From NCBI RefSeq assembly GCF_963921235.1, contig NC_086108.1, positions 37,946,001-38,010,000 on the forward strand: a stretch of 64,000 nucleotides of DNA. The letters are read 5' to 3'. The number at the start of each line of letters is the position of its first letter. Within the stretch, counting starts at the first letter, position 1. The translations under genes and the position numbers were made by a program. The DNA comes from Mobula hypostoma. Taxonomy: Eukaryota. Below the pieces are notes generated by a model. It was not told where the DNA came from, did not search any database, and saw nothing but the letters and a program-made list of their open reading frames with translations. This document shows positions 4,677 through 53,411 of the stretch, in pieces.

Positions 4677-4784
4677 CTGAATCACATTGTAAAGGAAGGC
4701 AGGATTTATGGATAAAAAGAAAGGCAAATATTTGAGAAATATTAATACATTCATGATAGATTTGCAAATACATTCACCAAGTAG

Positions 4785-4920
4785 TGTGGTCTTCCACTGA
4801 TTCTATTATGGTTATTATTCTATTATGGATTTATCGAGTACGTCCACAAGAAAATGAATCCTGGAGTTATATATATGACAAATATATATTTCGATAACAA
4901 ATTTACTTTGAACGTTGAAT
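4785..4920 (+). mobile_element. LINE 3' UTR tail fragment (Rex-like family)
   Basis: Matches 12400-12537 (ggatttattgagta...aaatttactttgaac). Confidence 0.6.
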
Positions 4921-5364
4921 AGTACAGAGATAATACACCCATGGATGTCAAGTGAAAAAAATCATCTATCTGTCCAATGTTATTTTCAATTTCAACTTCA
5001 ATCAGTATATATAAACAAAATAATGAAAATTTAGAAGTGATTAGTATATACAATCATATACAAGGGGATTTCAGTCAGTGTTATAAAGCTTGCCAGCAAA
5101 ATTTATATGGGTTTCGGCTTTCAATTCAATGTGGAAATCACTCCTTTCATTATACTATTTCCTGGATGACTCAACATATTATTTAAAAGGAAGTTCCCAT
5201 TCTGTTTTCAATTTATATATATGATACAGCAATTAATGTCAATCATAATTATCTTCTAGTATAGAAAAACCATATTTCCCACTTATGAAGAGATACTGAT
5301 TGCAAATGAGCTTCTAACAGAAATATTGCACTTACAATCAGGAAAATAACAGGGGTAAGAATAT

Positions 5365-5990
5365 AGTTCAAGATCAAGTTCAATTTTAATTATCATTCAA
5401 CCATACATAAATACACATGAATACAGACAAACAAAAGAGCATTACTCCAGCGCCAAGATGCAACACACAGTAGCAATAGTCACACACAGCACAAGGTACA
5501 TATAGCACATATAAGATAGCAAGCACATATAACATAGCAGTAAAATACAGTTACACCATAAAAATATAGTCCCAAGTCCTTGAGTCCACAAATGTTGCCA
5601 AAGTGTGCAGTCAAACACGATATGGATTGTCTTCTGCCAAGTGAACACAGGGGCCAGCACCAACTCTAGCATGGATGCCTCTGACACCACTGGTTCTTCT
5701 GGGCAGCTGTAAACAGGTGACACTGTGACTTGAGGCCTAGCCGCTGCTATGACCAAGGCCACGCAGCTCCTCTGCCAACCGCTAATAAAGCAGTCAATCA
5801 CACTTGCAGCATTCCACATTAACAATGTCCAACAGGGTCTTACGACCACAAGAAATGCAACTAAGAAGATCACTAGCTGTTCGACTGCACACTACCTTTA
5901 TGTACCAACACTTCTCTGATGCAGGCAACACCTTCAGCTCCTCCAGCTTCTCTGCTAATGAGAAACTCACTGATGGGGTAGACTTGCAAT
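5365..5990 (-). mobile_element. Non-coding retroposon with LINE-type tail
   Basis: The tail (gcacctt/atcttggc...gaatgataattaaa plus ttga-type repeats) is shared with 28385-28480. The far boundary is uncertain. Confidence 0.45.
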
Positions 5991-6008
5991 TTTAAAAAAA
6001 TGCTTAAA

Positions 6009-6792
6009 CATAACACCCTGATTAAGATTTTTACTGTGCTGTAAGTATTTCATTTTAGCAGTTCTGTAAGAGCAGTCTGTTCTGCTTTCAGCCTATTTGG
6101 GTTTGAGCTGAGTTAATGGGTTTTGTTGTTCAACTTAGGAAGGTGGTGTCAGCCAACCAGGATGGTGGAATTAGGAGAAGGTTCTAGAGAACACTGGGCG
6201 GAGAGGTTTTGTGAGGGACACTGTTGTGGGTCAAGGTCTTTTTCGGAGAGAACTGGGAGAAGACAGGAAGGAGGATGGCTGAGGATGTCACCTCTGTTGC
6301 ATAAGGTGCTTTCTGCAGATCCTATTTGTTTGAGATGTATTTCGTGCAACATTTGGAAGATGGTGCATGCTTTCATGCAGACTAACGCTCCAGCAGGTGA
6401 GTTACAAACAACTCCAAGATGAACTCCAACTTATGTGCACATTTGACTGCTTAATTATAATGGGCCCTTTTAGATTTTTTCTTTCTGTTCTTTAATTCCT
6501 TGGTTCAGTTAACATTCATAAACATACATTCTTTAATTGTACGCCGTGTACGGTCTGTTATTTCTTGCCGACAGGTAATTGCAGCGGACAGTAAATCACA
6601 GGGCATTCACACAAGACGGGGTTTGGGTGAGAGAGACATCCTAGCCTCACGTTTTGGCAGAACCAAAGTCAAATACACCCTAGATGTAAGGCGCCTGAGA
6701 AAGGCGGGTTTCTCATCGTGGAATCCAATGGCTGTCAGTGAAGGACTAAGGAGCCACATTTCCAGAGATGCCCAGTCAAAAGGGGTGTCACA
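6009..6792. mobile_element. Probable solo LTR
   Basis: About 780 bp bounded by imperfect inverted termini (cataacaccc...ggggtgtcaca) with A-rich 4-bp flanks (taaa/aaaa). No coding remnant. Confidence 0.45.
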
Positions 6793-7239
6793 AAAAGACA
6801 ATAACACCTTTTGTTGGTCCCATAGTAGCCATTGAGGTTGAGTGTGCTGCCATTTTACCAGGATTAACCAATGAATGACGTTTCCATGTAGCATTCATAG
6901 ATCCCCGCTGGTGGTTTACAGGTCAACACAGTGTAGCAATATTACTTAGTTGCACATTAACAGAGTTTCCCTTCTGCCTTGTCTATACAATGGAAATGTT
7001 CACTCTATTTTCTCTTCCCCCGTGCCTGTATGCTTTATTATTTCAAATTCAGCATTTTTAATGGTATCTTTCTCGCTTATCCATCATCAAATATAAGTTA
7101 AAGGAGCTGGATATCTTCTGAGCTGTTTTAGAGATTGTTCCAAAAGTAGACATGGAAGACAAAAGTATTACAAAATTTCAGAGTTCATTTTTATTGTATC
7201 TACAATTATTAATATTGTGCACAAAATGAAATCGACCTT

Positions 7240-8645
7240 GATCAAGAAAAGGAGTAGAGACAACCTAGGAAATTATAGACCAGTGAGTTTTATTTCAGTG
7301 ATAGGCAAATTGTTGGAGAAGATCCTGAGAGACAGGATTTATGAGCATTTGGAGAGGCATAATCTGATTAGAGATGGCTTTGTCAAGGGCAGGTTATGGT
7401 TTACAAGCCTGGTTGAATTCTTTGAGGATGTAACAAAACATATTGATGAGGATAGAGCAGTAGATGGTGTGTATATGGATTTCAGCAAGGCATTTGATAA
7501 GGTTCCCCATACCAAACTCATTCAAAAAGTAAGGAGGCATGGGATCCAAGGAGACCCTGCTTTGTGGTTCCAGAATTGGCTTGCCCACAGAAGGTAAAGG
7601 GTGGTTGTAGATGGTTGGTACTCTGCATGGAGGACAGTGACCAGTGGTGTTCCGCAGGGATCTGTTCTGGGACCCTTCCTCTTTGTGATTTTTATAAATG
7701 ACCTGGATGAGGAAGCAGAAGGGTTGGTTAGTAAGTGTGCTGGTGACACAAAAGTTAGGGTGTTGTGGATAGTCTGGAGGGTTGTCAGAGGTTACTGTGG
7801 GACATCAATAGGATGCAGAACTGGGCTGAGAAGTGGCAGATGGACTTCAACCTAGATAAGTTGGAAGTAGTTCATTTTGGTAGGTCAAATTTGAAAACAA
7901 AATATCATATTATATTAAGACCTTGGCAGTGTGGAGGATCAGTAAGATCTTGAAGTCCGTGTCCATAGGACACTCAAAGTTGTTGCGCCGGTTGATAGTG
8001 TTGTTAAGCAGGTGTATGGTGTATTGGCCTTCATCAACTGTGGGATTGAATTCAAGAGCCGTGAGCATGAGGCAATGTTAAAGCTATACAAGACCTTAGT
8101 TAGGCCCACTGGTTCAGTTCTGGTCAGCTTACTACAAGAAGGCTGTGGATACTATAGAAAGAGTGCAGAGGAGATTTACAAGGATGCTGCCTGGATTGGA
8201 GAGCATGTCTTATGAGAATAAGTTGAATGAACTTGGCCTTTCCTCTATGGAATGACGGAGGATGAGAGGTGACCTGATAGAGGTGTATAAGATTATGAGG
8301 GGCATTGATCATGTGGATAGCCAGAGGCTTTTTCCCAGGTCTGAAATGGCTAACACGAGGGGGCATAGTTTTAAGGTTCCTGGAAGTAGGTACAAGGGAG
8401 ATGTCAAAGGCAAGTTTTTCACACAGAGGGTGGTGAGTGCCTGGAATTCACTGCTAGCGACAGTGGTAGAGGTGGGTACAATAGGGTCTTTTAAGCAACT
8501 CTTAGATAGGTACATGGTGCTTAGAAAAACAGAGGGCTCTGCGGTAGGGAAATTCTAGGCAGTTTCTAGAGTAGGTTACAAGGTCGGCACAACATTGTGG
8601 GCTGAAGGGCCTGTAATGTGCTGTAGATGTCGATGTTCTATGTTG
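7240..8645 (+). mobile_element. CR1-clade LINE, 5'-truncated
   Basis: [29 protein letters not shown] and RGDLIEVYKI motifs, with frameshifts; gttctatgtt tail. Same family as 50550-59005. Confidence 0.93.
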
Positions 8646-11139
8646 ACTTGGGTTTTATGTTGAAGAGACTGCTGGCCAGCCACAAATAAAGCTTCAAGAA
8701 AACCAACTATTTCTGTCATTCAGAAGAATTCAACAACATTCTAAAAATAACAAAAAATAATTAAATTATTTAATGCATTAAGAATTAACTCAAAATTTTA
8801 AGAATATATCAAAAAATATCAGAAACATTCAAATGAAATTAAATACTTAAAGATCTAAAAAGAACACCACTACAGTCCCCACACAGCTGTTCATCTCCAA
8901 GTTTGATATGATTCCCTCGCAGATGTGCTGGGAAACTGCCACAACTTCATGCTGCACTACCAGACTAACGTATGAGCAGTCAGCAGTAAGTTCAGCACTT
9001 GTCTCTACTGGAATCTTGGAAATGCTGACTCTTTGGGACAGAACACCCAACATTTCTTTGAAAATCTTGACATTGGAGTATGTATTTGTCACTCGTTAGG
9101 AAGCTTTTGAAATTCTCCTCACGTATTGCACATAAAGTAACAGTTTTCTCACTGGTTTCTTTTGCCTTTTTGGTTAATATCTGTGCTACTTGATTATGAT
9201 ATTGGAAACCATTTCCATTCACTCTATGAAAATACATTGTGAACATTATCATGAACACCTCTGATCCTCAATTGCCTCTGTTGTAAGAGGAGACGCAATT
9301 TTCAACAGTCTTTTCATGCATATGTAACCACTCTCCACAGAAACTGCAAAGTTTTAACTTCATACCTGGATTTAGACACAATGATCAGCTTGATGCCTTA
9401 GCAATAACACTTTCTTTCAGAATGTTAGTGGGGTGTAAATGGAAGTGCTTTAAATTGGATTTTTTTTTGTATTGAGGAAAAGAAATTGAAGAGGAAATCG
9501 GAAAATAACCAATAAAAAAGAGAAAAGGTGCATCAGGAATGTTTCTTTCGGTGGAATCAACAAACAGATACTTGATTGAATAAAGTGTTAGAATAGAGTA
9601 CTTTATGAGTACTGAATCCATACTAAATCGAGAATTTATCATGAACTACACCTTGCTAATTTGTTTATTAAATACTATTAGATCATCTAATATACACATA
9701 ACAACAGGATAATTTTGAATTTCACATACTTCTTTCAAGATGTAGGATGCTGCCTCTCTGAAGTTCCTGGACTTGACAGCAGTCATTGAAATGGATGATT
9801 TGATCCAATACCAAGACAATGTACGATTATTGAAATTCACCCAGATATGTTGGCCTTTTCTAGCCCAGCAATAAACATTACGTAGTTGTAGGAGACAAAT
9901 TCTTATGAATTAGGTAATCAGTATTTCCCAGAATCAAGCTATCATATCTTGTGGCTACCTATTAAGATATTGGCTTGCATATGAGCATTTGTTAACTGTG
10001 GTTGTCAATTTCAGAACTTGAGGTTGCATTTCTTGGGAAGATGCTCTGGGTTCTATTTTTGATATGCAAATTGTGTTGCAAATCCCCATCAGCGCATTTG
10101 GTAAAAATATAATGTTCTCAGGGATAGCAACTCCAAAACTTTCCTGAAATCTGTTCATCATCAATTGCTGTTTAAACATATGCTGGTGTTTGAAGTTGAA
10201 TAGTGAATGGGAAAGTTTCATTGGGAATTGCATTTTCTTAACTTCGATCCTCTATTTGGTCAGGGAAATTGTCTTGGCAGACAATTGTGTGCTGTTCTTA
10301 AAGTTTTCAGGCAAGTGCAGGTTTGTCTAGACAGAATACAAAACACATTCCTGTAAAGTAATTGCTTTACAAAGCTTCTCCAGGCATCAAGTAAAAAAAA
10401 ATCATGATTGTCTTCTGCAACACAGAAGAGCAATTTGTTTTATTCCAGTCATGCCCTGTGGATTCGGAATGTATGTCATTAATTTACCAAACCGCCATGC
10501 TCACTTTCTGCGCAGACATTATTTGGAAATGCGTTGAAGCAACATCAGTGTATGGGAAAGATTCAGATCCTTGTTTAGATATGGCAAGGCAGTCACTGTC
10601 AGATGGAAATCAGATACAAAAGGATATCGACTCCACAATCCTGCGGCCCTCACATACCCCTTCCTCCCCAAGCTGCAGTCTTCAAAAAGATAAAACATAC
10701 TAAATCCAAAGGCAAGTTCAAGTAGCACTGTGGATCAGGATCAAAGCCAAAAACAAAGACCACCAAGTCAGTGTAGTTTAACAAATGGATGGGGATGATA
10801 GAGCTCGATTAATGTATTGGATTTTCGTGGCAGGTGACAGAAATTGTTGCAGCTCAGATGTAGGTAACAAAGGCACAGAACAAGAGCTTTCAGTTCAATC
10901 ACTGATAAAACAGCAGGTAATCCAATACCATCTGTTTAGTGCCAAGATGATTTTCTACCCAATGGATTTCTAGACCCAGGTAGTCCCAAATCTTTGTCAC
11001 ATCCACCAAAACATGTCCAAATTTAGGTTTTGACAGACAACACCACACCCTTTGTTAACACCACCGTTACCACAGTCTGATTTCATCTTATTGGTCCAAA
11101 ATTAGATGAATAAAATAACTCCATTCAAATACTGAGAAG

Positions 11140-11388
11140 TATTATAGGGGAAAGAATTTTGAGGGCTAATAATTAGTAAATAGTGATGTAGATTGTGCTA
11201 ATGTGGTAACAGGGAACCCCAAACATGGAATGCAGTGACAACACCCAGGTTTCAGATACTTCACTAATGTGCACCAATTGTTGTAATAGAAAATGGATTT
11301 GTTGTTCCATCTGTGAATAATCATTCTATTTTGTAATTAGGATCCAGTGTGCTCCTCAGCGAAGTCTTTCTGTAGCCACCATTCTGTA
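11140..11388 (+). repeat. ERV 5' LTR
   Basis: Aligns with 21868-22161 (shared blocks ggtaacagg.aaccccaaaca, gtgacaacacccaggtt, aatagaaaatgga, ataatcattctatt, agccaccattctg). Followed by a possible decayed PBS tggtaagctcg at 11396. Confidence 0.75.
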
Positions 11389-12119
11389 GGTTTTCTGGTA
11401 AGCTCGTCAATTGGGAAGGTAAAGGTTATGCCAAACACATGCTCAAGTACTGTATATCAGCTTTGGATGATCTCCTGGTGCACACCAATTCTTAATAAAT
11501 TGCCTGTTATTTGAACAACAACCGTGTGGTCTTTCAGTTTACTCCTACAATTGGCATAATCGTCAGAATACTCCACTGGATCGCAACTGACGATGAGGCT
11601 CTCGGGTGGGTGGGCGTGATTGAGATACCACCCTGTTAGGTCATGGGATAACCTCATAACCGACAGTGACCATAAATTGTGGTAAAAAGAGATCTTGGAG
11701 CATGAGGAGTTTGGTGTTGGGGAATGTGAGATTGGGATGTCTAGGTAACAGGCAGCTGGAATTCAGGTGGTTACAGGTTGCAACTGATTTGAGGAATCAA
11801 TTAACTGGCCAAATTTATTTGATAAATAGCTTCAGGTAGCAAGAATTGCAGGCACTAAGGTATGCAGACACTATAAGGCATGGCCATGGCAGAAAACAAA
11901 GAAGCTGGAAGAAGTTGGTGAAGAAGTGTGGGCATCTCTCCTGCAGATCCTAAGTTGGTACCAAATGATAATGAAGGGTTATAATCTGGATGGAACAATT
12001 CCTGAGCAAGTTACTTGGTGGAAGGGACAAGAGAAGAGCAAATATGAAAAGGCTGTAATAATAGTAACAACATTATTGTTCACTCACCGCAAGGTAGTGA
12101 TTGCCAAACAAGCTTGGTT

Positions 12120-12537
12120 GTTGTCTTGGCTGTCATCAGGAAGGACGCACATGAGCCTCAGGACTCAAACTACCAGGTTCAGTAACAGTTACTACCATCA
12201 GGCTCTTACAACAAAAGGGGATAACTTCATTCAACTTCACTTGCCTCATCACTGGAATGTTTCCACAACCTTTGAATTCACTTCCAAGGACTCTCCACCT
12301 CATGTTCTCAATGGTTGTTGCTCAATTATTTATTATTATTAGTTCTTTCTTTTTGTTTTTGCACTGTTTTATGTCTTTTGCACAGTGGTTGAATGCCCAA
12401 GTTGGTACAGTCTTTCGTTGATTCTGTTATAGTTAATATTGTATTAAGGATTTATTGAGTAAGCTGTCAAGAAATTGAATCTCAGGTCGTATATGGTGAA
12501 ATATATGTACTTTGATAATAAATTTACTTTGAACTTC
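12120..12537 (+). mobile_element. Rex-like LINE 3' fragment inserted in the ERV
   Basis: LSSGRTHMSLRTQTTRFSNSYY plus the 3' UTR ending aaatttactttgaactt. Confidence 0.7.
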
Positions 12538-12879
12538 GGTGTGTTGACCCTGTTAGTAGACAGATACAGAAAGTACCTTGTCAGTACTCCACGAATACAA
12601 CGGGCTGCTGTGGATAAACGAGGGAACATAATGACAGGAGGAAAATACCCAGGCCTACAGGTCAACACAAAAGTGGCAGAACTTAAAGTGCTAACAGAGC
12701 TCCTGAATTTAGGTAAGGGACATAGGTGAGTGTCTTTATAGACAGTACATACAGTTTTGGAGTTGTACACGATTGCAAGGCAACTTGATCAAGAAGCTGT
12801 ATGTAACCTCATCAGGAGGACATATACAACATGAAGAAATAGAGAAAGAGTTAGCCAAAGCTGCTTTTCTCACTGTTAC

Positions 12880-13029
12880 CATCAGTGAGAAAAGCAATTC
12901 AGGAACAGCTTCTTCCCCTCTGCCATCCAATTCCTAAATAGACATTGAAGCTTTGGACACTACCTCACTTTTTTTAATACACAGTATTTCTGTTTATGCA
13001 CATTTTAAAAAATCTACTCAATATACAAA

Positions 13030-13071
<42 letters not shown>

Positions 13072-13212
13072 TTATTTATTTATTTATTTATTTAATTGAT
13101 ATTATCATCATTTTTTCTCTCTCTGCTAGATTACGTACTTCATTGAACTGCTGCTGCTAAGTTAACAAATTTCACATCACATGCCAGTAATAATAAACCT
13201 GATTCTGATTCT
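12880..13212 (+). mobile_element. Rex-like LINE 3' fragment inside the ERV RNase H
   Basis: ttcaggaacagcttcttcccctctgccatc...aataaacctgattctgattct; homologous to 190-435. Confidence 0.75.
13031..13093. repeat. Compound microsatellite (TCTA)n(TTTA)n
   Basis: Directly visible. Confidence 0.95.
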
Positions 13213-13494
13213 AAACTGACCTGGGAAGCAGAAGTCATAAAGATTAAGGTGTGTGGAAGGGTAGACACCCCTGAAGAAACGGAAAATGCATTTGCTGATC
13301 AGGTAATTATGGAGGAATCGGGAGGTAGTGATGGTCAGGGAGGTGAAGAAGAAGGTTTAAGGTGAAACAAAAGAGTTTGTAATCAAAGAAAAAGTAGATT
13401 TGCGAACAAGCAGGAGTGGTGCAAAGGATGATGGAATGTGGAAAGAAAATGAATATTTGGTAGCCTAGAGTGGTTCAGATATACATTGTGAAAA

Positions 13495-16050
13495 AAAACC
13501 TACCATGGTTTAACTCATATAGGGTAGGACAAGATTAGGGCCCAGCTAGAAAGATACTGCTGGTGGCCAGGGAAGGGGTGCGATATTACTAAATTCTGCC
13601 AATAATGCACAACATGTGAGCCAGAAAAAGCAGTTACAATCTAACCAGGGTATCAGCCACAGCCTAAAGGTCCACGGGAGCAACTTCAGATTGACCTCAC
13701 AGGACCATAACCCCACTCCGTGGGTAAATGGTATTGTTTCATGATTCATTGATCACCTCACCAGGTTGGGGGGAAGTGTTCTTTGCTGAGATGGTAGCCT
13801 ATGTGCTAGCTGAAGAGATAATAACTAGGAGGGGAACACTAGCCATCCTTGATTCGGATCAAAGGACACACTTTACCTTAAAGATGATAAGGAGGGCTAG
13901 CATGTTGTTAGGGGTCAAGAAGAATTTTTACATTTCATATGGACCTCATAGTGCTGGCATGGTTGAGAGATGGAACTGCATCCTAAAAAGGTGCCTAATG
14001 AATGCCCTAATGGAGGTCAGGGAAAGCTGATCTAGGGCAGCATTTCTCAAAATATTTGAGCCGGAGGAGCTCTTGACTCAGGGAACCCTTGCATAAAAAT
14101 GATTATATCTATGCTCACGGTGCATTGGCATAATCAGTAAGTTGTAGATATAATAATACAAAAATAATTATCAATCCTCTTTTGGTGGAGATTGAATTTT
14201 TAGCCAACCTTTCTTGAAAAAAATCAGGTAATTAACCTTAGTTTACCTTTCTTGAAAATAATCTCTTTCTTCCCCTTTCATAAATTTTTAAAACTCATAA
14301 ATTTCTGTTAAATAACTAGCTTAAGCCAAAATAGTATTTAATTTTCTAAATGTAGGCACTATAGAGTTAATTTAAATAAAGGCTGTAAATTGATTTTGTT
14401 TAATGCTATTTACAAAAAAATTATTAGCATTGTTGAAAAGTGAAGTTACAAAAAAGCATAAGCCAAAGCAGTATGAATAAAAATATAGTTTAAGACACAA
14501 TTTTATAGAAGACATTGAAAAAACATTTTCTTACCAAGTGACATGATCAGGCTCAAATATAGGTCTAGCATGTGAAACCCGTGCTTGCTATTTGCTGCAA
14601 AAATTCTCAATTCTTAGTCAAATTTGAGATTAGCACATAGATTTCACCTTCAACTGAAATAAGACAATTTCTATCCTTGCTCTTGATGCCTGTTAAACAA
14701 GAAAAAGCTTGCTTGCACATGTAAGAAGTTGAAAACTGCAGCAAAATGTCCATTGCTTTCCTATGAATAGCAGGATACGCTTCACAGAAATCCAGAACTT
14801 GTCCAGAAGCAGGAAGGGAAATCTCATCTTGAGTGCATGATCAGAGTGCAGCTCACCAAGTTCTTCCTCGTCTCGCCAAGTCAAGTTCTCAGGCTGAGCA
14901 GAAGATTCACAGAAAGGCTCCCTCATTCAGTCATATACTTGAGTTGAAAGGGACGAAATGTATAGTTCAATCTTGTTCTGAAGTTCTTCCAAGTGGTTTT
15001 CAATAAGAGACATTCTGATATCCTTCCTCTCAAGCCTAAGCAGCAGAGGAAACATTTCAAGATTTCTTTTCGCAACATGATTTTTCAAAAGATTCAGTTT
15101 CCTTTTAAATCTAAGAATCTTGTCATTTGAAGTCAAAACATTTTCTCCAGGGCCTTGCAGAGATTTGTTCAACTGGATCACGTAATGAAAAATCCACGCT
15201 AACTAGGCCAGTTTCTGCAGCCATTCTTCATCTTCAAAACACTCTATAAAATCTGTCCTTACTATTTTCATAAGGGGAAGTAGGGAGAGGTAATTTGAGA
15301 GGGAGAGGCTGACTTCACAGCCCAAGTTGGGCGAGTCCATTTGATGCTTGTAAAACGCACTTCACGCTCCTCATCGGCCCACCATTCCCCTCTCAATGCA
15401 ATACAGTGCTCACCAATTATCAATGGTCTCCTCTATCTCACATCAAAAACTCAGAATGGACTCAACCAAATAAACATGTTCCTACTACACACTGCCATAC
15501 TAGGCTGAGAGACCTCTAATGAGATAGCTAACAGGGCTGCTCATCACTGCCCATCACTGCGAGCACTAGAATCTTTCAAAAGGACAATTTTTTAAAAATC
15601 ATTATCTCTCACGGAACCACTGTTGAGAAACCCTGGTTTAGTATCTTACCAGCAGTGCTGATGAAACTACAAGTGAGCTCTGCTCGTGGGACAGGATTTA
15701 ATCCTTTTAAACTAATGATAGGATGGGTTTAGCAAATACCTCAGGATTGGATTAAGGATGACCGAAGAGCTGATAAAGAGTGTATCATCCAGTTTGTACA
15801 GGATAAGGCCATTTGCATGCATGATCTAAAATGGGAGAGTGTGGACTGGGAGCACAAGTATGTCCAGGTAAAGAGGAACTTGCCAGAGCAGGAGGCAAGG
15901 TCACGATTAAGGTTGTACCCGCAAAACTAGGACTACAACACAGATGGACGGGACCAATTATGGTAATCTTGGCCGGGAAATGTATGCTCTAAAAGAAACT
16001 AAGGAAGGGACTGAGTGGAAATACTGATTTCACCTGAAATGATATTTTCA
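13495..16050 (+). pseudogene. ERV integrase remnant, split by the hAT element
   Basis: YHGLTHIG, LQIDL, LDSDQRTHFT, SYGPHSAGMVERWNCILKRCL. Resumes after 15635 as SILPAVLMKL...TGFNPFKLMIG and ...RWTGPI. Confidence 0.85.
14038..15635 (-). mobile_element. Charlie-type hAT DNA transposon, internally deleted
   Basis: TIRs cagcatttctcaa / ttgagaaaccctg; decayed 8-bp TSD atctaggg / gtttagta. Transposase C-terminal remnants LNKSLQG...FKRKL...LEMFP and EEELGELHSD...KFWISV. Confidence 0.88.
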
Positions 16051-17103
16051 GCAGGGATGACTTAACCATGCAAAATACAGGTTTCCCCCGCCATCTGAAG
16101 GTAGAGCGTTCCTATGAAAGGGTTCGTAGACCGGAATGTCATAAAGTGAAGAAGCAATTACCATTTACTTACATGAGAAAAATTTGTGAGCGATCGCAGA
16201 CCCAAAAATTAACTTACCAAATCATGCCAAATAACACATAAAACCTAAAATAACAGTAACATATAGTAAAAGCAGGAATGATATGATAAATACACAGCTT
16301 ATATAAAGTAGAAATACTTTTCTACAATCATTGCCACACTGTTCTCCATTGCGAAAATCTCACGCAAGTGCTTTCGGCAGAAACACAGTGCAAGCGCTCT
16401 TGGTAGAAACACTCTCTCCAGTAACCTTTAAGCTGTGAAGCTGCCAAATCATACCAAATAACACCTAAAAATAGACAGCCTATATAAAGTAGAAATAATG
16501 TATGTACAGTGTAGTATCACTTACTGGAATCAGGAAGATAGCGCCAAGCACACTGATGATCGTGTATTAAGCTGAGTCATCGGAGGTTGGGGTGGTGCAC
16601 TGGTCCCCAACCTCCAGGCAGCGACTGATACTGATCTGCGAAGCATGCAGCAGTACAGCAGTAGCGGGGACGCACCCAGCACATCTTTAAGAAAAAAGCC
16701 TAAATAAACAAGCTAATTAATTAGGTACCACCCGGCACGTAAATGTCGGCCCAGATCAGAGGCGATTGTTTCCATCAGGGCAGGCAGGTCATCTTCTTCT
16801 ATGTCTGCCTGCCTCGATGTCAAAGGTCAAGGTTCATCATCTGCTGTGGCTGATGTGGAATGCTTGAAAAACGACAGTACGCTTGACTGCTTAGCTTCGC
16901 GCATTTTTCTATCATACAGTTCTTTGTAAGCACTCAAACCATCCTGCAAATTTTCCCTAAACCTACGCACCCTTTCAAAATTAAAGTCGTACTTTTCTGC
17001 AATCATTAACAACAGGAATTCTCCAGATGCTGGAAATTCAAGCAACACACATAAAAGTTGCTGGTGAACGCAGCAGGCCAAGCAGCATCTCTAGGAAGAG
17101 GTA

Positions 17104-17141
17104 CAGTTGACGTTTCAGGCCGAGACCCTTCGTCAGGACTA
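17104..17141 (-). ncRNA. Minimal type I hammerhead ribozyme in the inverted pLTR
   Basis: Reverse complement tagtc CTGACGA agg gtctcgg cct GAAA cGTC aactg. Core intact; one mismatch in helix I next to the cleavage site. Confidence 0.75.
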
Positions 17142-19307
17142 ACTGAAGGAAGAGTGAATAAGGGATTTGAAAGTTGGAGGGGGAGGGGGAGATCCAAAAT
17201 GATAGGAGAAGACAGAAGGGGGAGGGATGGAGCCAAGAGCTGGACAGGTGATAGGCAAAAGGGATACGAGAGGATCATGGGACAGGAGGTCCGGGAAGAA
17301 AGACAAGGAGGTGTGGGGGGGGGGGGACCCAGAGGATGGGCAAGAGGTATATTCAGAGGGACAGAGGGAGAAAAAGGAGAGTGAGAGAAAGAATGTGTGT
17401 ATAAAAATAAGTAACAGATGGGGTACGAGGGGGAGGTGGGGCATTAGCGGAAGTTAGAGAAGTCGATGTTCATGCCATCAGGTTGGAGGCTACCCAGACG
17501 GAATATAAGGTGTTGTTCCTCCAACCTGAGTGTGGCTTCATCTTTACAGTAGAGGAGGCCGTGGATAGACATGTCAGAATGGGAATGGGATGTGGAATTA
17601 AACTTTTTGATGATTTTAAGTTCCCTGGCCCCCACCGCTTTGTTTTCACCATGGATGTCCAGTTCCTATATACTTCCATCCCCCATCAGGAAGGTCTCAA
17701 AGCTCTACACTTCTTTTCAGATTCCAGACCTAATCAGTTCCCCTCTACCACCACTCTGCTCCGTCTAGCGGAATTAGTCCTTACTCTTAATAATTTCTCC
17801 TTTGGCTCCTCCCACTTCCTCCGAACTAAAGGTGTAGCTATGGGCACCCATATGGGTCCTAGCTATGCCTGCCTTTTCGTTGGCTTTGTGGAACAATCTA
17901 TGTTCCGTGCCTATTCTGGTATCTGTCCCCCACTTTTACTTCGCTACATCGACGACTGCATTGGTGCTGCTTCCTGCACGCATGCAGAGCTCGTTGACTT
18001 TATTAACTTTGCCTCCAACTTTCACCCTGCCCTCAAGTTTATCTGGTCCATTTCCGACACCTCCCTCCCCTTTCTAGATCTTTCTGTCTCTGTCTCTGGA
18101 GACAGCTTATCCACTGATGACTACTATAAGCCTACTGACTCTCACAGCTATCTGGACTATTCCTCTTCTCACCCTGTCTCTTGCAAAAACGCCATCCCCT
18201 TCTCGAAATTCCTCCGTCTCCGCCGCATCTGCTCTCAGGATGACGCTTTTCATTCTAGGACGAGGGAGATGTCTTCCTTTTTTAAAGAAAGGGGCTTCCC
18301 TTCCTCCACTATCAACTCTGCTCTCAAACGCATCTCCCCCATTTCACGTACATCTGCTCTCACTCCATCCTCCCGCCACCCCACTAGGAATAGGGTTCCC
18401 CTGGTCCTCACCTACCACCCCACCAGCCTCCGGGTCCAACATATTATTCTCCGTAACTTCCACCACCTCCAACGGGATTCCACCACTAAGCACATCTTTC
18501 CCTCCCCCGCTGTCTCTGCCTTCCACAGGGGTCACTTCCTACGCGACTCCCTTGTCCATTCGTCCCCCCCATCCCTCCCCACTGATCTCCCTCCTGGCAC
18601 TTAACCGTGTAAGCGGAACAAGTGCTACACATGCCCTTACACTTCTTCCCTTACCACCATTCAAGGCCCCAAACAGTCCTTCCAGGTGAGGCAACACTTC
18701 ACCTGTAAGTCAGCTGGGGTGATATACTGCGTCCGGTGCTCCCAATGTGGCCTTTTATATATTGGTGAGACCCGATGCAGACTGGGAGACCACTTTCCTG
18801 AACACCTACGCTCTGTCCGCCAGAGAAAGCAGGATCTCCCAGTGGCCACACATTTTAATTCCGCATCCCATTCCCATTCTGACATGTCTATCCATGGCCT
18901 CCTCTACTGTAAAGATGAAGCCACACTCAGGTTGGAGGAACAACACCTTATATTCCGTCTGGGTAGCCTCCAACCTGATGGCATGAACATCGACTTCTCT
19001 AACTTCCGCTAATGCCCCACCTCCCCCTCGTACCCCTTGTGTTACTTATTTTTATACACACATTCTTTCTCTCACTCTCCTTTTTCTGCCTCTGTCCCTC
19101 TGAATATACCCCTTGCCCATCCTCTGGGTCCCCCCCGCCCCCCCGTCTTTCTTCCCGGACCTCCTGTCCCATGATCCTCTCGTATCCCTTTTGCCTATCA
19201 CCTGTCCAGCTCTTGGCTCCATCCCTCCCCCTCCTGTCTTCTCCTATCATTTTGAATCTCCCCCTCCCCCTCCAACTTTCAAATCCCTTACTCACTCTTC
19301 CTTCAGT

Positions 19308-19345
19308 TAGTCCTGACGAAGGGTCTCGGCCTGAAACGTCGACTG
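19308..19345 (+). ncRNA. Minimal type I hammerhead ribozyme
   Basis: tagtc CTGACGA agg gtctcgg cct GAAA cGTC gactg. Helix I tagtc/gactg, helix II agg/cct, palindromic ACGT helix III, predicted cut after 19340. Confidence 0.85.
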
Positions 19346-19939
19346 CACCTCTTCCTAGAGATGCTGCCTGGCCTGCTGCGTTCACCAACAACTTTCATGT
19401 GTGTTTCTGCAATCATTGCTGTCAATTGCAGCGAAAATCTCACGCAGTTGCTTCACATTCAGTTCCTGGATGACTTCACTTTCGGTCCGTTCGCTGCTGC
19501 ATTCGGTTTCAATTGTTATCCCTTCCTCTTCCAATTGCATCAGCTCTTCATCTATCAGTTCTTGGCCATGGGATGCCAAAACCTCTTCAACATCATCTTC
19601 CTCAACTTCCACAAGCCAAACTCACTTCGTCCTTACTTGGTTCACCACGATCGAAACACTTAATTATGTCTAGTTTTATGCTAAGTGTAACACCCTCTTT
19701 TAGGCTCTTCCGATACCTTAAAACTCATCTTGCTAACAGATGCTCACAGGCATGTGTTTAAGCAATGCCGGCTAGAATGCAGTTCCGGGGCAGCAGCTTG
19801 GCTGCTCGGGGCACGCGCTGTCTTTTTTCGTAACAGTGAAAACACCTTCTGTTAGCGAAAACAGGTAACTAATGTAGGTCTTTCGTAACTGCGAGGTTTC
19901 GTAAAGTGAACGTTCGAAAAGCAGGGGACACCTGCACAG

Positions 19940-21800
19940 TATATCCGCAGGAACAGTAAACATGGAGACCAACAAACTATGCTCTGAAGAATCTATATAA
20001 TTGGATGTGTCATTCTTTTGAGGTCTCTCTTGATAGCAAACAAAATGCAGACTGTAAATTGAGGGACTAATGAAGAAAACTAACTGTGGGTTGTACCAGT
20101 TTTATGCGGTTTCACATCAGGGACGATAGCATGCAATGCTATGAAATGGACTTTTGAAAACTGCACAAACCTCAGGGAACATCCAGTGGGGAGTAGGCAT
20201 ACACAAGAGGGGGAATTCCGTGTTTATATTTGTCATGGTCAGATATGGAACCAACAAACTATTCACACTTAAGTGCAACAATGAAACTTATTCGGTAGCA
20301 CGACAAGGGCTGATCTGTTCGGGAATTGATCTCTGCAGGATCACTTCTTACCACAAGAGAACCATGTGTACTGAAGGCCAGAAGAACACTAGGGGGATAG
20401 GGTTAAAACTTAGAGATGGGTGAAAGGGTTACACTAGAACCAGGCTACAGACACCTGCAGATAGTTTTAACCTGACTGTTTAACAGCTACCTAGTTTTTT
20501 GCGGGACAGTACAAATCACCTTTTCAACATTTACTCTGTAGGCAAGCTACTCATAGTGAGTTTAGGACAGAAAAGCAGAGAAGTGAAAAGGGGCTCGATT
20601 GAGTTGTTAGGAGCAGGATATTCGGCAGTTGTGTTCACAGTCATTACTTTAGATATAGCAGAAATAGATATGCAACCTTCAGCAGAGGTTGAAGAGGATC
20701 ACAAAACCAAATTATGGTGATTTGGAACAAGCTAGCAAAATAGGGGTAGAAGGGGAGTTAGAAACTATCCAGTTATTGCAGCCATTAAAGGATATAACTA
20801 ACGAGATTATTGATAGAGTGAATATTAACACCTGATCCTGTGGTAAAAATGCAGCCTGTACAATGTATGCTGCCTGGCTCTTGTCTGTAGTCAGGATAAG
20901 TTTTGCACAGTTAGAAGGTCACAGAATCTCAAACAGGGCAGACAAGCAGCTGAAAGACTAGCTGGGTGAAGACCCCTGTGTGCTTCCTTTTGAGATCTCA
21001 TTCTGACTAACCATACTCCAGGAGACTGCAAAAATGAGAGGAGTCCAATATATGCTGCAGTGACAATCAGAAGTATGCACTTATGAAAATGCATAATGTC
21101 AGAAAATACCATGAGGGAACTTAGATATCTTGAAGCAACCCACCAGCCTATGCAATGGAGTTACACAAAGGGAGCATCATCAGGCATGTCCAGAGGAGAT
21201 TATATGAAGAAGTCTGACTGAATGCAGTTTTGCCTTACATGATAACTATTCCCTGTTCATATAGCCCACTGAAAAATGAAAACTTTCTGAACAATACTTT
21301 GTTGAACATTTACAACATCGCAACATCAGCATGAACATATTACAAGGAGTAGTTATAATGTAGTCTGACTGGCTATAATGTGATATCTCAATCGAATTAA
21401 TGATTGCAGAGCACAGCCTGCCTAAGAACTGATGCTGGATCTCGAGCTGGAGCTTACCATTTCTGGTAGTGACACAGAAAAAAGACTGCACAGGTATGTA
21501 GCCACAGAATGACCACTCATTCCACACTTTACTGCTGATTGGGAAAAGATTGTCTGAGAGGGGATAAGGAAGCCACTATGAAATGGGATGCACTGTCAAT
21601 ACCGATAACAGATCATTAGAATACTGCCAAATTGGCTCGAGAGAAACTCTCCGTTTGAGTCAATATTTGGAATTGGGATATGAATTTAGAAATCCATCCC
21701 TGCATTTGACTTACGCCATTGTTGTACAGCTGATTATTTTAATAACTGTTATTATTTTAGTGTGCAAGTAGAGCATAGGTGTGATAGTCATTTAGTTGGC
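19940..21800 (+). pseudogene. ERV env remnant
   Basis: Basic cleavage-like site SREVKR (REVKR at 20577-20591), then hydrophobic GSIELLGAGYSAVVFTVITLDI, a heptad-like segment, AACTMYAAWLL, and a C-terminal anchor YAIVVQLIILITVIILVCK. Many stops and frameshifts. Confidence 0.65.
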
Positions 21801-21867
21801 CAAACAAGAGTATTGTTCGGGATCTAATCTTAAGGCTGTTCTAGGCCAAGGGCCAAGAGGGGAGGAC

Positions 21868-22161
21868 TGTTGTAGAGAATGTCATTGTGAGGGTTAATAA
21901 TTAATAAATCAAGATATAGAATATGCTAATATGGTAACAGGTAACCCCAAACAAAAGTAGAGACATGGAATGCAGCAGTGACAACACCCAGGTTATACAG
22001 TAATAAACTATAAAGTATAAGATTTCAGAAACTTCACTAATGTGTTATAAAGTGCACCCATTGTCATAATAGAAAATGGAGTTGCTGTTAGAGCTGTAGA
22101 TAATCATTCTATTCTGTAATCACAATCTAGTCTACCACTTAATAGAGCCACCATTCTGCCA
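21868..22161 (+). repeat. ERV 3' LTR
   Basis: TG...CA ends, preceded by the polypurine tract aagaggggagga (21855-21866). Homologous to 11140-11388. Confidence 0.8.
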
Positions 22162-22519
22162 TAAAAATGGCATTTTTCAGGGAATTTTGCCAATTGAGAA
22201 TGTTAAAGCTGAACCAAAATTCACGCTTGGGTAGATCAGCTTTGGCTGGCTTCCCCTGTGCACTCCAGTTTTTAATAAATCACCAACTCCAGGTAATCTT
22301 TCCGCTTGCTCCTACAAGAAGACTAAAGTCATTGACTTTAGTTCAAGTATAAACTCAGTTCTACAGCTTTATACACCACTAGCCATCCTTGATGTGCCTA
22401 TATTGATGACATTCTAAACTCTTTGCAACCTCAACTAAACCTCTGGATCCTTTATTAGCTTCATTTATAGACTCATCACCAACTCTGCTTCTACTTGATT
22501 TGACTCAAGGTATGACTCA

Positions 22520-23335
22520 AGTAATGATGAGTCGGAGTACAGAGGGAGATAGAGGTCAGGATAACAACCTTTCCCTCACTGACAGTTAAGAAAAGGAGCT
22601 GGTCATTGACTTCAGAAAGGGGGCAGTGCAATGTTCCTGTCTACATCAATGGCGCTATGGTTGAGAGCTTCACGATGCTAGAAGTGAACATCACCAATAG
22701 ACTGTCCTCGCCCAACTGTATTAACACCATGGCCAAGAAAGCTCACGAGCAGCTTTACTTCCTTAGCCAGCTAATGAAATTTGTAATGTCCCCTTTGACC
22801 TTCACCAATGTTACTGATGCACCGTAGAAAGCACCCAATCCAGATGCATCACAGTCTGGTCTGGGAAATGCTGTGCCCAAGTCTGAAGAGTTAGTGGATG
22901 CATCTGAGCACATCAGGAAAACTAGCCTTCCGTCTGTAGACTCTGTGTACACTTCACTGCCTCACTAAAGCCGTCTGCATAATCAAAGACCCAACCACCT
23001 CTGACATTTTTTCTTCTCTCCTCCCATCATGCAGAAGATACAAAAGCCTGAAAAGCCAGGTTCAAAAACAGCTTCTGTCTTGCTGTTATAATACTATTCG
23101 AATGATTCCTCAGCACAATAAAACAGACTCTTGACTTCACAATCTACCTCGTTATGAACTTACAGCTTATTATGTCCTGTACCGCATTTCCTCTGTAATT
23201 GTAACACTTTATTCTATGTTCTGTTATGGTTTTACCTTGTACTACCTCAAAGCACTGCTGTAGTTAATTGATCTGTAGTATGCAATGCAAGTTTTTCACT
23301 CTACCTCAGGACATGTAACGATAATAAACTAATCT
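22520..23335 (+). mobile_element. Rex1/Babar-type LINE 3' fragment, decayed
   Basis: PVYINGAMVE...MAKKAHEQLYFL remnants and a LINE-type 3' UTR. Confidence 0.75.
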
Positions 23336-23475
23336 ACCTGATCACATGCTTTGCTGGAATTCTTATCCATATCTTTGCCATACTCAGATTCAAATATGCT
23401 ATTCCTCCCTGGTCAGCCTCACAGTTCACAATTTCCAAATCCCAAGATCAAGATCAGTTTAATCATCACCTCTGA

Positions 23476-24320
23476 TCAGATTAGATTAAATTAGATTAGA
23501 TTCAACTTTATTGTCATTGTGCCAAGTACAGATACAAAGCCAATGAAATGCATTTAGCATCTGACCAGAAATGCAAAGAATAGTGTTATTTACAAAATAA
23601 CTGCAAATAAAAAAAGTGCTACAGTTCACAAATATAAAAGTACTGAGACAGTACTATACGGATGCAATGCTGCCGAGCGCCGTGATGAGAGGTTCAGCAG
23701 GGTCACAGCCTCAGGGAAGAAGCTCTTCCTGTGCCTGCTGGTGTGGGAGCGGAGGCTCCTGTAGCGCCTACCGGATGGGAGGAGAGTAAAAAGTCCATGG
23801 TTAGGGTGTGATGCATCCCTGAAAATGCTTTTCACCCTGCCCAGGCAGCATTTATAGTGGATGTTCTCAATGGTGGGCAATTGGGTGCCGATAATCTGCT
23901 GGGCAGTTTTAACCACATGCTGGAATGCTTTGCGGTCCGATATGGGAAAATTGCCATACCACACTGAGATGCAGTTGGTGAGTATGCTCTCAATGGTACA
24001 GTGGTAAAAGTCTGTCAGTATCCTGGGACAAAGGTGAGCTTTCTTCATGCTCCACAGGAAATAAAGGCTCTGTTGCGCCTTTTTGATCAGGATGGAGGAG
24101 TTCAGGGACCAGGTGAGATCCTCGGAAATGTGGACACCAACGGAATTTGAAGCTTGATACATGCTCCACTACAGCTCCGTTGATGTAGATAGGGACGTGA
24201 GTGTGACTCCTGCCATGCCTGAAGTCCACAATGATCTCCTTGGTCTTTTGGGTGTTAAGGGCTAGATTGCTGTCGGCACACCACGCAGCCAGGTGCTGGA
24301 CCTCGTCACTGACCAACCCT
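23476..24320 (-). mobile_element. Rex1/Babar-type LINE 3' portion
   Basis: LALNTQKTKEIIVDFR...GVHISEDLTW...KKAQQSLYFL...FYHCTIESIL...LLPSGRRYRSL; (attag)n tail on the plus strand at 23476-23502. Confidence 0.9.
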
Positions 24321-24394
24321 GGCTCCCAGTCAAGCTGTCTAAAGCTCTCAACATTTTTCGTCATATCCTTTCCTGGTTTTGGGTCTTCCTATCC

Positions 24395-25040
24395 ATAGAA
24401 CTGTACATCATAGTACAGGCCCTTTGACCCATGGTGTTATGTCAATCTTTTAACCTACTCCAAAATCAAACTAAATCCTCCCTCCTGCATTGCCCTATCT
24501 AAAAGTCTCTTAAATGCCCCGAACGTATTTAACTCTACTGTCAACTCTGGGAATGCATCCCATGCAACGACCACTGTCTGTGTAAAAAAAACTTAACTCT
24601 GAGAACACCCATTGGTTTTACTCCATTCATCATAAAATTATGTCCTCTCATATTAGCTATTAATTGCTGGATGAAATGGGCCATTCCTAGCAAGCAATGT
24701 GATAATGGGAAACTTGAAGCTCAGTCTCCTTTACAAGAGATGCAACATAGATCATTTAAAAGCAATCACCTTTAAATTCTGCCCTCTCATATTAGCATTT
24801 CCACCTGGAAAACAGGCACTGACTATCCACTCTATTATTGCCTCTTATCATTTTATCCACTTCAATTAAGTCACCTCTCATTCTCATCTTTTCTTTTCTT
24901 TTAAAAGCCTTTGTTCATTCAACCTTTCCTCATAAGACATGCTCTCCAAATCCTGGTAAATCTCCTCTGCACATTTTCTAAAGCTTCCACATCCTCCCTA
25001 CAACGAGGCGACCAGAACTAAACACGATACTCTGCGTGGC
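24395..25040 (-). mobile_element. CR1-clade LINE 3' fragment, rearranged
   Basis: Reverse complement of the VQFWSP...RGDLIEV region and the CR1 3' UTR. A short segment is duplicated (about 24635-24660 vs 24770-24800). Confidence 0.7.
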
Positions 25041-25209
25041 TAACCGGACATTAATGGCTGTTCAAAAAGCAAGAGTGACACAAGCTCCAACCTACACAAT
25101 CTCTGAGTAATCCCAAATTTATTTAAAATTAGGAAAGACTGAGATAAAATCAATCCAAATTAGCAATATAAATAATGCATAGAAATTTCGATTGAGGTTT
25201 ACATGCTTA

Positions 25210-25368
<159 letters not shown>

Positions 25369-29907: not shown

Positions 29908-30345
29908 AACAGAATCAGAATCAGATTTATTATCACTGTCTTATATGACTTGATTTTTTTTTGTTTTGTGGCAGCAGTACAGTGCATGACATAAAATAAC
30001 TTCAAATTACAAAAGAAATAAATAGTGCACAAAAAAAAGGAATAAGGAGCTCGAATTTGTGAGTTCATGAACCATTCAGAAACCTGATGGCGGAGGGAAA
30101 GAAGCTGTTTCTAAAGGGCTGAGTGAGGGTCTTCAGGCTCCTATATCTCCTTTCTGCTGGCAATAATGGGAAGAGGATAGTAAAAGTCCACAGTGATTGT
30201 TGCTGTCTTCTTGAGGCACCACCTCTTTAAGATGACCTCAAATGGCTGGGAAGTTTGGGCCAGTGATAGGGCTGGCTGAGTATACAACACACTGCAGCCT
30301 CCTCTGAGCTTATACACTTTAGGCCCTCCAAACCATATATATCCC
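29908..30345 (-). mobile_element. Rex-like LINE 3' fragment
   Basis: (cagaat)n tail and aagaagctgtt...cttcaggctcct, the reverse of the RSLK...NSFFP region. Confidence 0.7.
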
Positions 30346-31065
30346 CAGCGTCTTTGGGAAACCATGGGTGATGGATTTGGACAGAATCTTATCATTCACA
30401 TTCAACACTGAAATGGTTTTCCATTTCCTGATGTTGTTCCTCTCCCTCTTCAGTTAGTTAATAAGGGTGATGCAAACTTTCTTCATGAAGTGTGACATGC
30501 TACCAGCCAGAAGCGTATCGAACAATGGCAGAAAAAGTTACCCTTTTGAAGGGATAGAGAACGTCATGTCATGATTATTTAATTTGCATAATTTGTTACC
30601 TCATACACACTTATATAATGGGCGTTTCCTTGTACTGGATATCAGGGCCACAGTGAAAACTGGATTTCTTGATGGGAAAGAGGAATAAGTAGTTTGTAAA
30701 GGTATAGCTAAACTGGCCAATTTAGAGTAGCAAGAGTATAAAGATGATCAATTATGCAGTTCAGTAACATTATACTGCACCAACTAACACAGTCCACTGA
30801 GAACTTTCAGCTCCAGTACATTTAAGCTTCAGGCTAAATCCATTTAAGTGCATAAAGTGAAAGTGTTTGTTTCTCTTACAGAAATGCATATTCTGCTGTT
30901 TGACTTAAGAAGTTGTTCAAATTTGGTATAGAACAAATAATTACACCTGTTAGACTTGGACATTGCTAATCAGTAAGCTCAATAATTAACTTCAAGTTAG
31001 ATATATTTTAGATGAGGAAAAAGTATCATTGAAGGAATATTGTAACCTTACAGTACTTTATTTGA

Positions 31066-33253: not shown

Positions 33254-33618
33254 CAGTACTTTATTTGAGCTGTTTAATTGTAAATACTCAGACAACTTTT
33301 CAGCAAACTCCAAATAAAGCTTAACTGAATCTATACATAATAATTTTACCTCTTTGGTACATAAATAGTAGCTTCTATTTTCTGGTTTAATTTGTTCCTC
33401 ATTTGTCAAAATTAGTACTTACCTATGAAAGCAAGATAGAGCAACAATCAACTGACAAGCTATCAGTGATCATACTATTTGAGATAAATAAAATAAATAT
33501 AAAAGTAGGCCACTTCAGAGCCAAAATATCTGAACAGTAGTTGATAAAAAGAATACGTTACAAATATTTTAGAAATTATGCACAACACTGAAACTACTAT
33601 ATGCACTGGGCTGCTTAC

Positions 33619-44308: not shown

Positions 44309-44996
44309 AAGCAGGAGCCTCAGTGGTAGAGGGAACCGGAACTGTAAACTACTGTTCCCTCTAAGCTGCGCAAGTGAGTAGCCATGCAGTAACTGAAATG
44401 CTCCCGTGCACGTTGCGTTTGTTGCTGTGTTGCTGGAATTTTCTTTTATAAAATATTTTATTAAAGTGCCACACAGTTTTCAGGCTGTATAATAATTTCC
44501 TGGGCAAAGCAATCGTTTGTCCATGCCTCTGTAAAACAAATTAGAGTTGCTATGAACGTGTCTTTCATTATTGTTGGATAGATCAGTGGGATTCCAAAGA
44601 GTTATCTCAGAATACTACCTTAAATTATTTGACTGTAGAACTTACAGTTTTGATTTTATTACAAATCTCACACTGTTGTTTGTAGATACATAATATTTAG
44701 AAAGGTTTCACTGGTACTGGGCCCCACAGTATAGACCAAGTACAGAGGATACAAGGCATCAGGGAAAGTAAAAAAAAGTTACTTTGTAAAGGAGGCAATC
44801 ACAACAGCTTGATTCAGGCATTGATCATGTACAGAAGGAGGTTATTGAAAATCACGTCTACATGGTGCTCCGTAATGTAGTGATGACAGAAGCTTAGTTT
44901 TTTACCATGTAGTTTCTGTTTGTTTGAACAAGAGTGCAGAGCATTTGAAGGGTGAACAATCTGACCATGGCAAGAAGTGGACAAAAATCTCAAAAA

Positions 44997-53342: not shown

Positions 53343-53411
53343 GCTAAATTTGGGACGGAGTAAATTGATTGGGTTAAAATTCCCGAAAGAAAGAAAAGAC
53401 AAACAGCAGAA

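Follow-up and report, generated by a model that had tools for sequence, protein, structure and literature searches.

Endogenous retroviruses (ERVs) related to the epsilonretroviruses and to the snakehead retrovirus (SnRV) have been reported from the elephant shark (PMC4422223; PMC4977317), and many retroviral lineages of fish are described as lying outside the named genera (PMC6001957). Envelopes of the gamma type are reported as common in cartilaginous fishes (bioRxiv 10.1101/2021.11.23.469661), and the catalogues based on reverse transcriptase (RT) contain mostly clade III elements there (bioRxiv 10.1101/2023.10.17.562709). The lokiretrovirus RT screen of PMC7947760 gave 0 of 6 positive chondrichthyan genomes. 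The element described here is found at positions 11140-22316 of a stretch of 64,000 nucleotides from Mobula hypostoma (NC_086108.1, 37,946,001 to 38,010,000), referred to below as the window. With a probability of about 0.8 it goes back to one integration into the germ line by a canonical (Retroviridae) retrovirus of the fish type, primed by tRNA-Ser and with a Pol at the base of class I. The provirus is old, dead and internally deleted, carries no sign of co-option and makes no virus. An earlier note on this DNA had proposed one old, internally deleted vertebrate retroviral provirus rather than a Gypsy element, and this core claim is borne out by the type of RNase H, the target-site duplication (TSD), the primer binding site (PBS) and the polypurine tract (PPT).

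The nearest relative is a Pol of an eel-linked ERV (P0003), the best match among 142 references, whose cluster includes XP_035260807.1 of Anguilla anguilla. It resembles the window in RNase H (39% identity over 61 amino acids and 52% over 23) and in integrase (41% over 76), but is only about 40% identical, and the window is without protease (PR) and RT. The epsilonretroviruses walleye dermal sarcoma virus (WDSV) and walleye epidermal hyperplasia virus (WEHV), together with the Xenopus class I ERVs of the Xen-1 type, share the RNase H motifs and 33-38% identity in the integrase core, and the envelope protein (Env) of WDSV has, like the env of the window, a long ectodomain without CX6CC. The integrase N-termini of WDSV, WEHV and Xen-1, however, score far under those of P0003 and P0016, and no env homology is found. 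The window element also has no accessory-gene space.

SnRV and the SnRV-like CmiERV lineage I (PMC4422223) are comparable in the type of fish host, the long transmembrane (TM) ectodomain and an immunoglobulin (Ig)-like pattern near the Env N-terminus. SnRV differs in that its branch is rejected in the placement analysis and in that the insert between its RNase H and integrase is absent from the window element. The elephant-shark CmiERVs, set beside the window by their description in PMC4422223, are complete proviruses, epsilon- and SnRV-related, with a divergence between long terminal repeats (LTRs) of 0.024-0.033 against 0.237 here. The lokiretroviruses as presented in PMC7947760 share a retroviral design with dual RNase H and a non-gamma Env with a long ectodomain; they differ in RNase H type, in the histidine spacing of integrase and in the length of the Env N-terminus, as judged by eye and with foamy RNase H as a proxy. 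An ancient, degraded ERV is already a known sort of genomic fossil, and the present one looks unusually old.

Structure of the provirus

The features are given in Table 1. The element spans 11,177 bp; without the later insertions, 4,972 bp of retroviral sequence remain. The two LTRs are matched by blastn (11156-11500 against 21884-22280, E 1e-28), with another piece extending to 11550/22317. Global alignment over their full lengths gave 79.7% identity over 380 columns with 15 gap runs and a score of 278, against a maximum of -63 among 200 shuffles. The direct repeats of 250-290 bp of the earlier note are thus real, but their lengths are 410 and 449 bp. Its 3' end of the element, 22161, is off by 155 bp and is corrected to 22316. 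The PPT ahead of the second repeat and the TG...CA bounds of that repeat were both seen as described, while the first repeat opens with TA.

The element is flanked by a TSD that is identical in 5 of 5 positions at ends fixed by the alignment, the terminal CA, the PBS and the PPT; by arithmetic the chance of this is about 1 in 1000. The PBS begins two bases 3' of the 5' LTR and was compared with the tRNA-Ser oligo given in PMC3299991. Searches for tRNA and against Rfam gave no match.

The repeats could in principle be unrelated dispersed copies, which is considered hardly credible. No third LTR copy is present within the 64-kb window, and TSD, PBS and PPT show that the repeats belong with the interior.

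Table 1. Features of the provirus, its nested insertions and the host intron in the window.
Feature	Position	Strand	Evidence
Host intron, 20,534 bp, KCNT-type potassium channel gene	4677..25210	-	GT/AG sites, in-phase exons, Slo-like_RCK E 4.7e-9
Left TSD AGAAG	11135..11139	+	identical 5-mer at 22317-22321
5' LTR, 410 bp, TA...CA, AATAAA at 11494	11140..11549	+	alignment
PBS, 14/18 vs complement of human tRNA-Ser 3' end; 3/4 mismatches G to A	11552..11569	+	
Candidate gag N-terminus, broken	11640..12118	+	position and a frame with few stops
Nested insertion 1, dispersed repeat	12120..12537	.	77% identity with 4789-4913 across 126 bp; TSD not clear
RNase H, first part, three frames	12544..12870	+	tblastn E 3.8e-8 to P0003; score 191
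Nested insertion 2, dispersed repeat with microsatellite	12880..13212	.	matches 193-434, 29911-30115; ATCT array
RNase H, last part	13216..13311	+	aligned to reference RNase H C-termini, 22-34% vs class I-type rows
Zinc finger plus catalytic core of integrase, in two frames	13495..14027	+	Pfam Integrase_H2C2 E 3.9e-8; profile positions 4-90, 108-182
Nested insertion 3, DNA transposon-like	14038..15635	-	imperfect terminal inverted repeats
Integrase core end and C-terminal domain	15636..15989	+	profile positions 186-259 (E 8e-7), 271-306 (E 0.002); tblastn matches
Nested insertion 4, DNA transposon-like, holds Penelope element	16079..19934	-	imperfect terminal inverted repeats; CENP-B_N E 0.057, weak
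Penelope-like retroelement within insertion 4	17008..19403	+	RVT_1 E 8e-5, GIY-YIG E 0.026, 14-bp target duplication
env remnant, stops and frameshifts	19979..21860	+	leader, basic site, apolar stretch, membrane helix; position and layout
PPT	21848..21867	+	directly before 3' LTR
3' LTR, 449 bp, TG...CA, AATAAA at 22274	21868..22316	+	alignment
Right TSD AGAAG	22317..22321	+	copy of 11135-11139

Remnants of pol

The RNase H remnant, proposed from the sequence alone, is confirmed by frameshift-aware alignment, the check that had been suggested for it. The score of 191 to P0003 compares with a maximum of 49 in 40 shuffles, and the alignment starts at 12544, just 3' of insertion 1. Scores to other references were 81-149 for the class I-type rows, 103 for SnRV and 35 for ERV-L. 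Five foamy RNases H were at noise level (32-46), and 9 of 9 Gypsy-type RNase H regions (PF17917) scored 24-59, in agreement with the claim of a closer likeness to vertebrate retroviruses than to Gypsy elements. P0003 carries both a tether and a PF00075 RNase H; it is the latter, the second and retroviral one, that the window RNase H matches, and in the element this domain sits upstream of integrase.

Integrase consists of four collinear pieces in the integrase profile, spanning insertion 3, and the RNase H and integrase pieces together keep their order across the four nested insertions. The piece at 13495-14027 gave E 6e-5 against the integrase of prototype foamy virus and E 1e-4 against that of human immunodeficiency virus. 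Among 57 references P0003 ranks first with a score of 377. Word-based protein searches with two integrase pieces returned 47 and 38 candidates, none of them significant. The integrase core was found in 0 of 10 viral contigs, the RNase H pattern gave 0 matches there, and genome contigs gave 0 of 61. An Atlas search with the integrase core returned rve clusters at 0.85-0.86, which is a lead. The coding remnants show heavy decay and are poor in CpG (0.19-0.31, against 0.68 in a young Gypsy open reading frame (ORF)).

No positive match to a profile of 53 RTs was found in six frames. The PR-RT-tether regions of two relatives gave shuffle-level scores in 7 of 8 comparisons; the eighth scored 64 against a shuffle maximum of 58 and is located inside insertion 2. 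PR, RT and tether are therefore judged lost, and the earlier statement that no RT or protease is recognisable is confirmed. The internal deletion postulated there is likewise supported. Insertion 1 falls at the junction of the gag-like frame end and the RNase H start.

The proposed history begins with one retrovirus that would have integrated in antisense orientation in an intron of what we take to be KCNT2, primed by tRNA-Ser and making the 5-bp target duplication. On a modest balance of the evidence, about 3 kb, comprising the rest of gag, PR, RT and tether, would then have been lost after integration, probably along with insertion 1; the two events are taken to belong together because insertion 1 sits at the deletion point. 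Otherwise, a genome that was already defective may have been copied by a helper. The provirus could have persisted neutrally since its polyA signals are oriented opposite to host transcription, followed by decay and four further insertions.

Phylogenetic placement of RNase H and integrase

The references comprised gamma, delta and foamy viruses, WDSV and WEHV, SnRV, one ERV from Xenopus and loci of the ERV-L-like kind. Labels such as gamma, delta, foamy and ERV-L-like are those we presume to apply. For WDSV, Xen-1 and SnRV the RNase H sequences agree with the rows that PMC7947760 gives under these names in its supplement. A close match to the integrase was first obtained with L083, a retrovirus from a metagenome. 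Relatives were gathered with L083 as query, which gave 163 proteins, 120 of them listed. The fixed tree contained 38 references and was based on RT, RNase H and integrase; eight window pieces, as separate rows, were tried on all 73 branches. SnRV is represented by one reference, and lokiretroviruses, fish foamy-like ERVs and shark ERVs are absent from the tree. Rows dropped before the analyses were P0042, P0071 and P0038 (short RT), P0042 and P0025 (short integrase, free tree) and redundant references, and four misaligned terminal residues of one RNase H piece were removed.

The pieces fit best on the stem that unites class I (gamma/epsilon) with P0003, with a probability of 0.94 in the approximately unbiased (AU) test, and each of the five highest-ranking branches is next to P0003 and P0001/2. 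The best branch is just outside the gamma and epsilon clade (clade Mu of PMC6001957); the WDSV, WEHV and Xen-1-type tips are rejected and the WDSV/WEHV stem is retained. RNase H alone leaves 15 of 38 branches open and integrase alone 21 of 44, and both point to the neighbourhood of the class I base. In a free integrase tree three window pieces fall on the retroviral side of a split with 99% support in the Shimodaira-Hasegawa-like approximate likelihood ratio test. The tree of RNase H and integrase with epsilon-, snakehead- and foamy-type references, which had been called for, thus gives a retroviral placement near the class I base. As judged from sequence, the Pol would best, though loosely, be placed in a basal grade of class I that is related to the epsilonretroviruses in a broad sense, and nearest to the eel-linked ERV Pol. 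SnRV, foamy, ERV-L and gamma placements are rejected on the 38-reference tree.

A relationship to the snakehead-related fish retroviruses in a broad sense (clade Huo, class III-like), and not to class I, is considered unlikely. The branches of P0001/2 (AU 0.17) and P0015-25 (AU 0.08) are retained; the same references rank second to sixth for integrase and lie near SnRV without resolution in the RT tree. The layout of env and its Ig-like pattern recall SnRV Env, and SnRV-like ERVs are known in the elephant shark (PMC4422223). The SnRV branch itself, however, is rejected at an AU of about 1e-66 (0.002 for RNase H alone and 0.0001 for integrase alone). SnRV ranks only 47th of 57 for integrase, and its insert between RNase H and integrase is absent.

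That the element is a lokiretrovirus, and thereby the first one in a cartilaginous fish, is very improbable. The long TM ectodomain and a few short motifs that resemble, by eye, the published Loki-Xtr Env speak for it, and the RT screen of PMC7947760, with its 0 of 6 chondrichthyan positives, would miss an element without RT. Against this, lokiretroviral RNase H groups with foamy RNase H (PMC7947760), which is at noise level here. By eye, the published lokiretroviral RNase H rows lack the window motif after the second aspartate and the spacing between the integrase histidines is longer. The lokiretroviral Env has about 115 amino acids before the cleavage site, as published, against about 200 in the window. 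An early lokiretrovirus reading was dropped on comparison by eye with the published RNase H and integrase rows.

Three side observations concern the references. P0015, P0016, P0018 and P0025 form a well-supported, deep-branching clade of retroviral Pol from ENA/Logan assemblies. L083 and L084 are metagenome contigs with intact gag-stop-pol and no env ORF in the 370 bases after pol. In the SnRV Pol (L047:4560-5150) RNase H and integrase are separated by a long insert that contains two HxT/S-like motifs and that we assume to be 2H-phosphoesterase-like.

Envelope remnant

The env remnant has a hydrophobic leader near 19979 and a basic site ending at 20591, after which comes an apolar stretch; a membrane helix starts at 21706. 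The distance from the basic site to the TM helix is 371 amino acids, against 384 in WDSV, 354 in SnRV, about 389 in foamy viruses, 144 in gamma and 133 in delta viruses. No CX6CC or immunosuppressive domain (ISD) pattern was found in 3 of 3 frames. An envelope of the gamma type is therefore rejected on the spacing (371 against about 140 amino acids), on the missing ISD and CX6CC and on a TM profile score under the shuffle maximum. A likeness by eye of one env stretch to the gamma ISD and cysteines had z 2.4 (6 of 150 shuffles) and was then not upheld. The layout makes a non-gamma envelope with a long ectodomain likely.

A cysteine/tryptophan pattern of the canonical Ig-like type is found at 20099-20233, and the six-frame translation of the window contains it at two further sites. 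The C-W-YxC pattern occurs once near the N-terminus of SnRV Env too; pairwise similarity between the window and SnRV Env is not significant (p 0.59). In SnRV itself the Env N-terminus (L047:6131-6550) shows a C-x13-W...YxC pattern with a weak match to Ig V-set (E 0.32) and may carry an Ig-like head. The Ig-like piece of the env remnant has no Pfam or PDB match. The reading as an F-like Env that carries an Ig-like head is treated as a lead.

Searches with env gave no significant match. Comparison by hhalign with the envelopes of WDSV, SnRV, 15 foamy and 12 gamma-type viruses gave a best probability of 1.5%, with low power, as the references miss each other. One env frame in a full HMMER search had 0 matches. 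Pfam (including paramyxovirus F, PF00523) and PDB gave none either, again with low power, the intact TM regions of WDSV and SnRV also matching no fusion protein. Single-sequence folds reached a predicted local distance difference test score of 34 and 43.5, and all matches in a structure-based search had E of 2 or more.

Age of the insertion

The Kimura two-parameter (K2P) divergence of the LTRs is 0.237 (bootstrap 0.184-0.293). At the mammalian rate as used in PMC7947760 this corresponds to 54 million years (My), or 42 My at the lower bound. The shark rate as assumed in PMC4422223 gives 539 My, which is implausible, and intermediate rates give 118-237 My. The age is thus about 40 My or more at the mammalian rate. 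It is possibly far greater, because a low mutation rate has been measured in sharks (PMC10587355). The considerable age proposed earlier agrees with the K2P of 0.237, the decayed coding remnants and the layers of nested insertions.

In a second organism (four runs from one sample) 0.62 of the words of 10200-12100 were found, about half of this region being flank and half element. Flank and element are both present there at about 1.5% divergence. Two further organisms contained 0.05-0.07 of the words and are not counted as evidence.

The LTR divergence is 7-10 times that reported for complete elephant-shark ERVs (PMC4422223), which makes the locus a potential dated marker. Screens that rely on RT would miss this copy, and its Pol falls in a poorly sampled region of the tree, between classes I and III. 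Orthologues in distant relatives, if found, would set a minimum age for the lineage and for its having a non-gamma envelope. A wider proposal, that the locus is a fossil of more than 100 My, orthologous across rays or sharks, from a retroviral lineage joining a class I-stem Pol to an F-like, Ig-headed Env, is doubtful. If true, it would date the envelope design and place the locus among the oldest with both LTRs and TSD readable. In the open-access literature nothing was found about this locus or about an Env with an Ig-like head. The locus alone is of modest interest, old degraded ERVs being common and epsilon- and snakehead-like ERVs having already been reported in cartilaginous fishes.

Evidence against the assignment

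Several observations weigh against a single retroviral integration with a Pol at the base of class I. The standard lineage marker, RT, is missing from this copy. The placement is loose, with 11 of 73 branches retained, among them those of P0003, P0001/2 and P0015-25 and the WDSV/WEHV stem (AU 0.10). AU tests on the free integrase tree retain Metaviridae, foamy and class I groupings alike and are uninformative. The gag N-terminus that had been suggested at about 11640-12110 was not confirmed: z was 0.4-0.5 against 3 of 3 reference gag N-termini and 0.7 for the best of 6 whole gags, Pfam and Atlas gave no support, and it stands as a positional candidate. For the env remnants proposed earlier, the layout is in place, from the leader through the basic site and the apolar stretch to the TM helix, but no significant homology was found. 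The basic site departs from the canonical R-x-K/R-R, and the best env score is that of a gamma TM profile (51.9 against a shuffle maximum of 55.5, z 2.0).

Integrase alone retains the Metaviridae stem at AU 0.178, and the retroviral assignment rests on RNase H for this reason. A Ty3/Gypsy (Metaviridae) element with env would fit this result. It is given next to no credence, since the RNase H is the second, retroviral one and the stem and the interior of the Metaviridae-like rows are rejected for RNase H and integrase combined (AU 0.023 or less). The grouping with Metaviridae that would have spoken against the earlier note was therefore not obtained.

The two halves of the LTR alignment are unequal in divergence (0.178 and 0.301), and recombination or conversion of the LTRs may for this reason inflate the age. 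A recombinant of two related proviruses, or a provirus with gene-converted LTRs, the age of which is overstated by LTR divergence, would account for the unequal halves, the large indels and the implausible 539 My obtained with the rate assumed in PMC4422223. The matching 5-bp TSD argues for a single integration, and the decayed, CpG-poor coding remnants and three layers of nesting do not fit an overstated age. This explanation is regarded as improbable, and one old integration is preferred.

Host intron, nested insertions and other repeats

The provirus is on the plus strand, antisense to minus-strand exons with Slo-like RCK matches, and takes up 11,177 of the 20,534 bp of the intron (54%). 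Splice sites and exon matches agree with the antisense position and the filling of about half of a 20.5-kb intron proposed earlier. The host gene is presumably KCNT2 and not KCNT1, going by the appearance of the peptide, and peptides and repeats suggest a host among the cartilaginous fishes. Of 10 window ORFs looked up by exact match, 0 were found.

Four nested insertions were found at about the places first suggested, on the basis of repeat matches and terminal inverted repeats. Insertion 1 is taken to be LINE-tail-like, insertion 3 hAT/Charlie-like and insertion 4 Tigger/pogo-like. Insertion 3 had no Pfam match in 3 of 3 frames.

Penelope-like copies occur at 17008-19403, 30990-33270, 44990-46060 and 62320-64000, with 89-96% identity and inverted terminal parts. 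At 53364-56366 there is a Gypsy-type ORF of 1000 amino acids with SCAN (E 1e-12) and a zinc knuckle, between near-identical repeats at 52461 and 56539; with these repeats it is a young, internally deleted LTR element. Older CR1-like LINE fragments are found at 7097-8450, 35600-36560 and 57580-58925, one of them with an RVT_1 match of E 5e-12.

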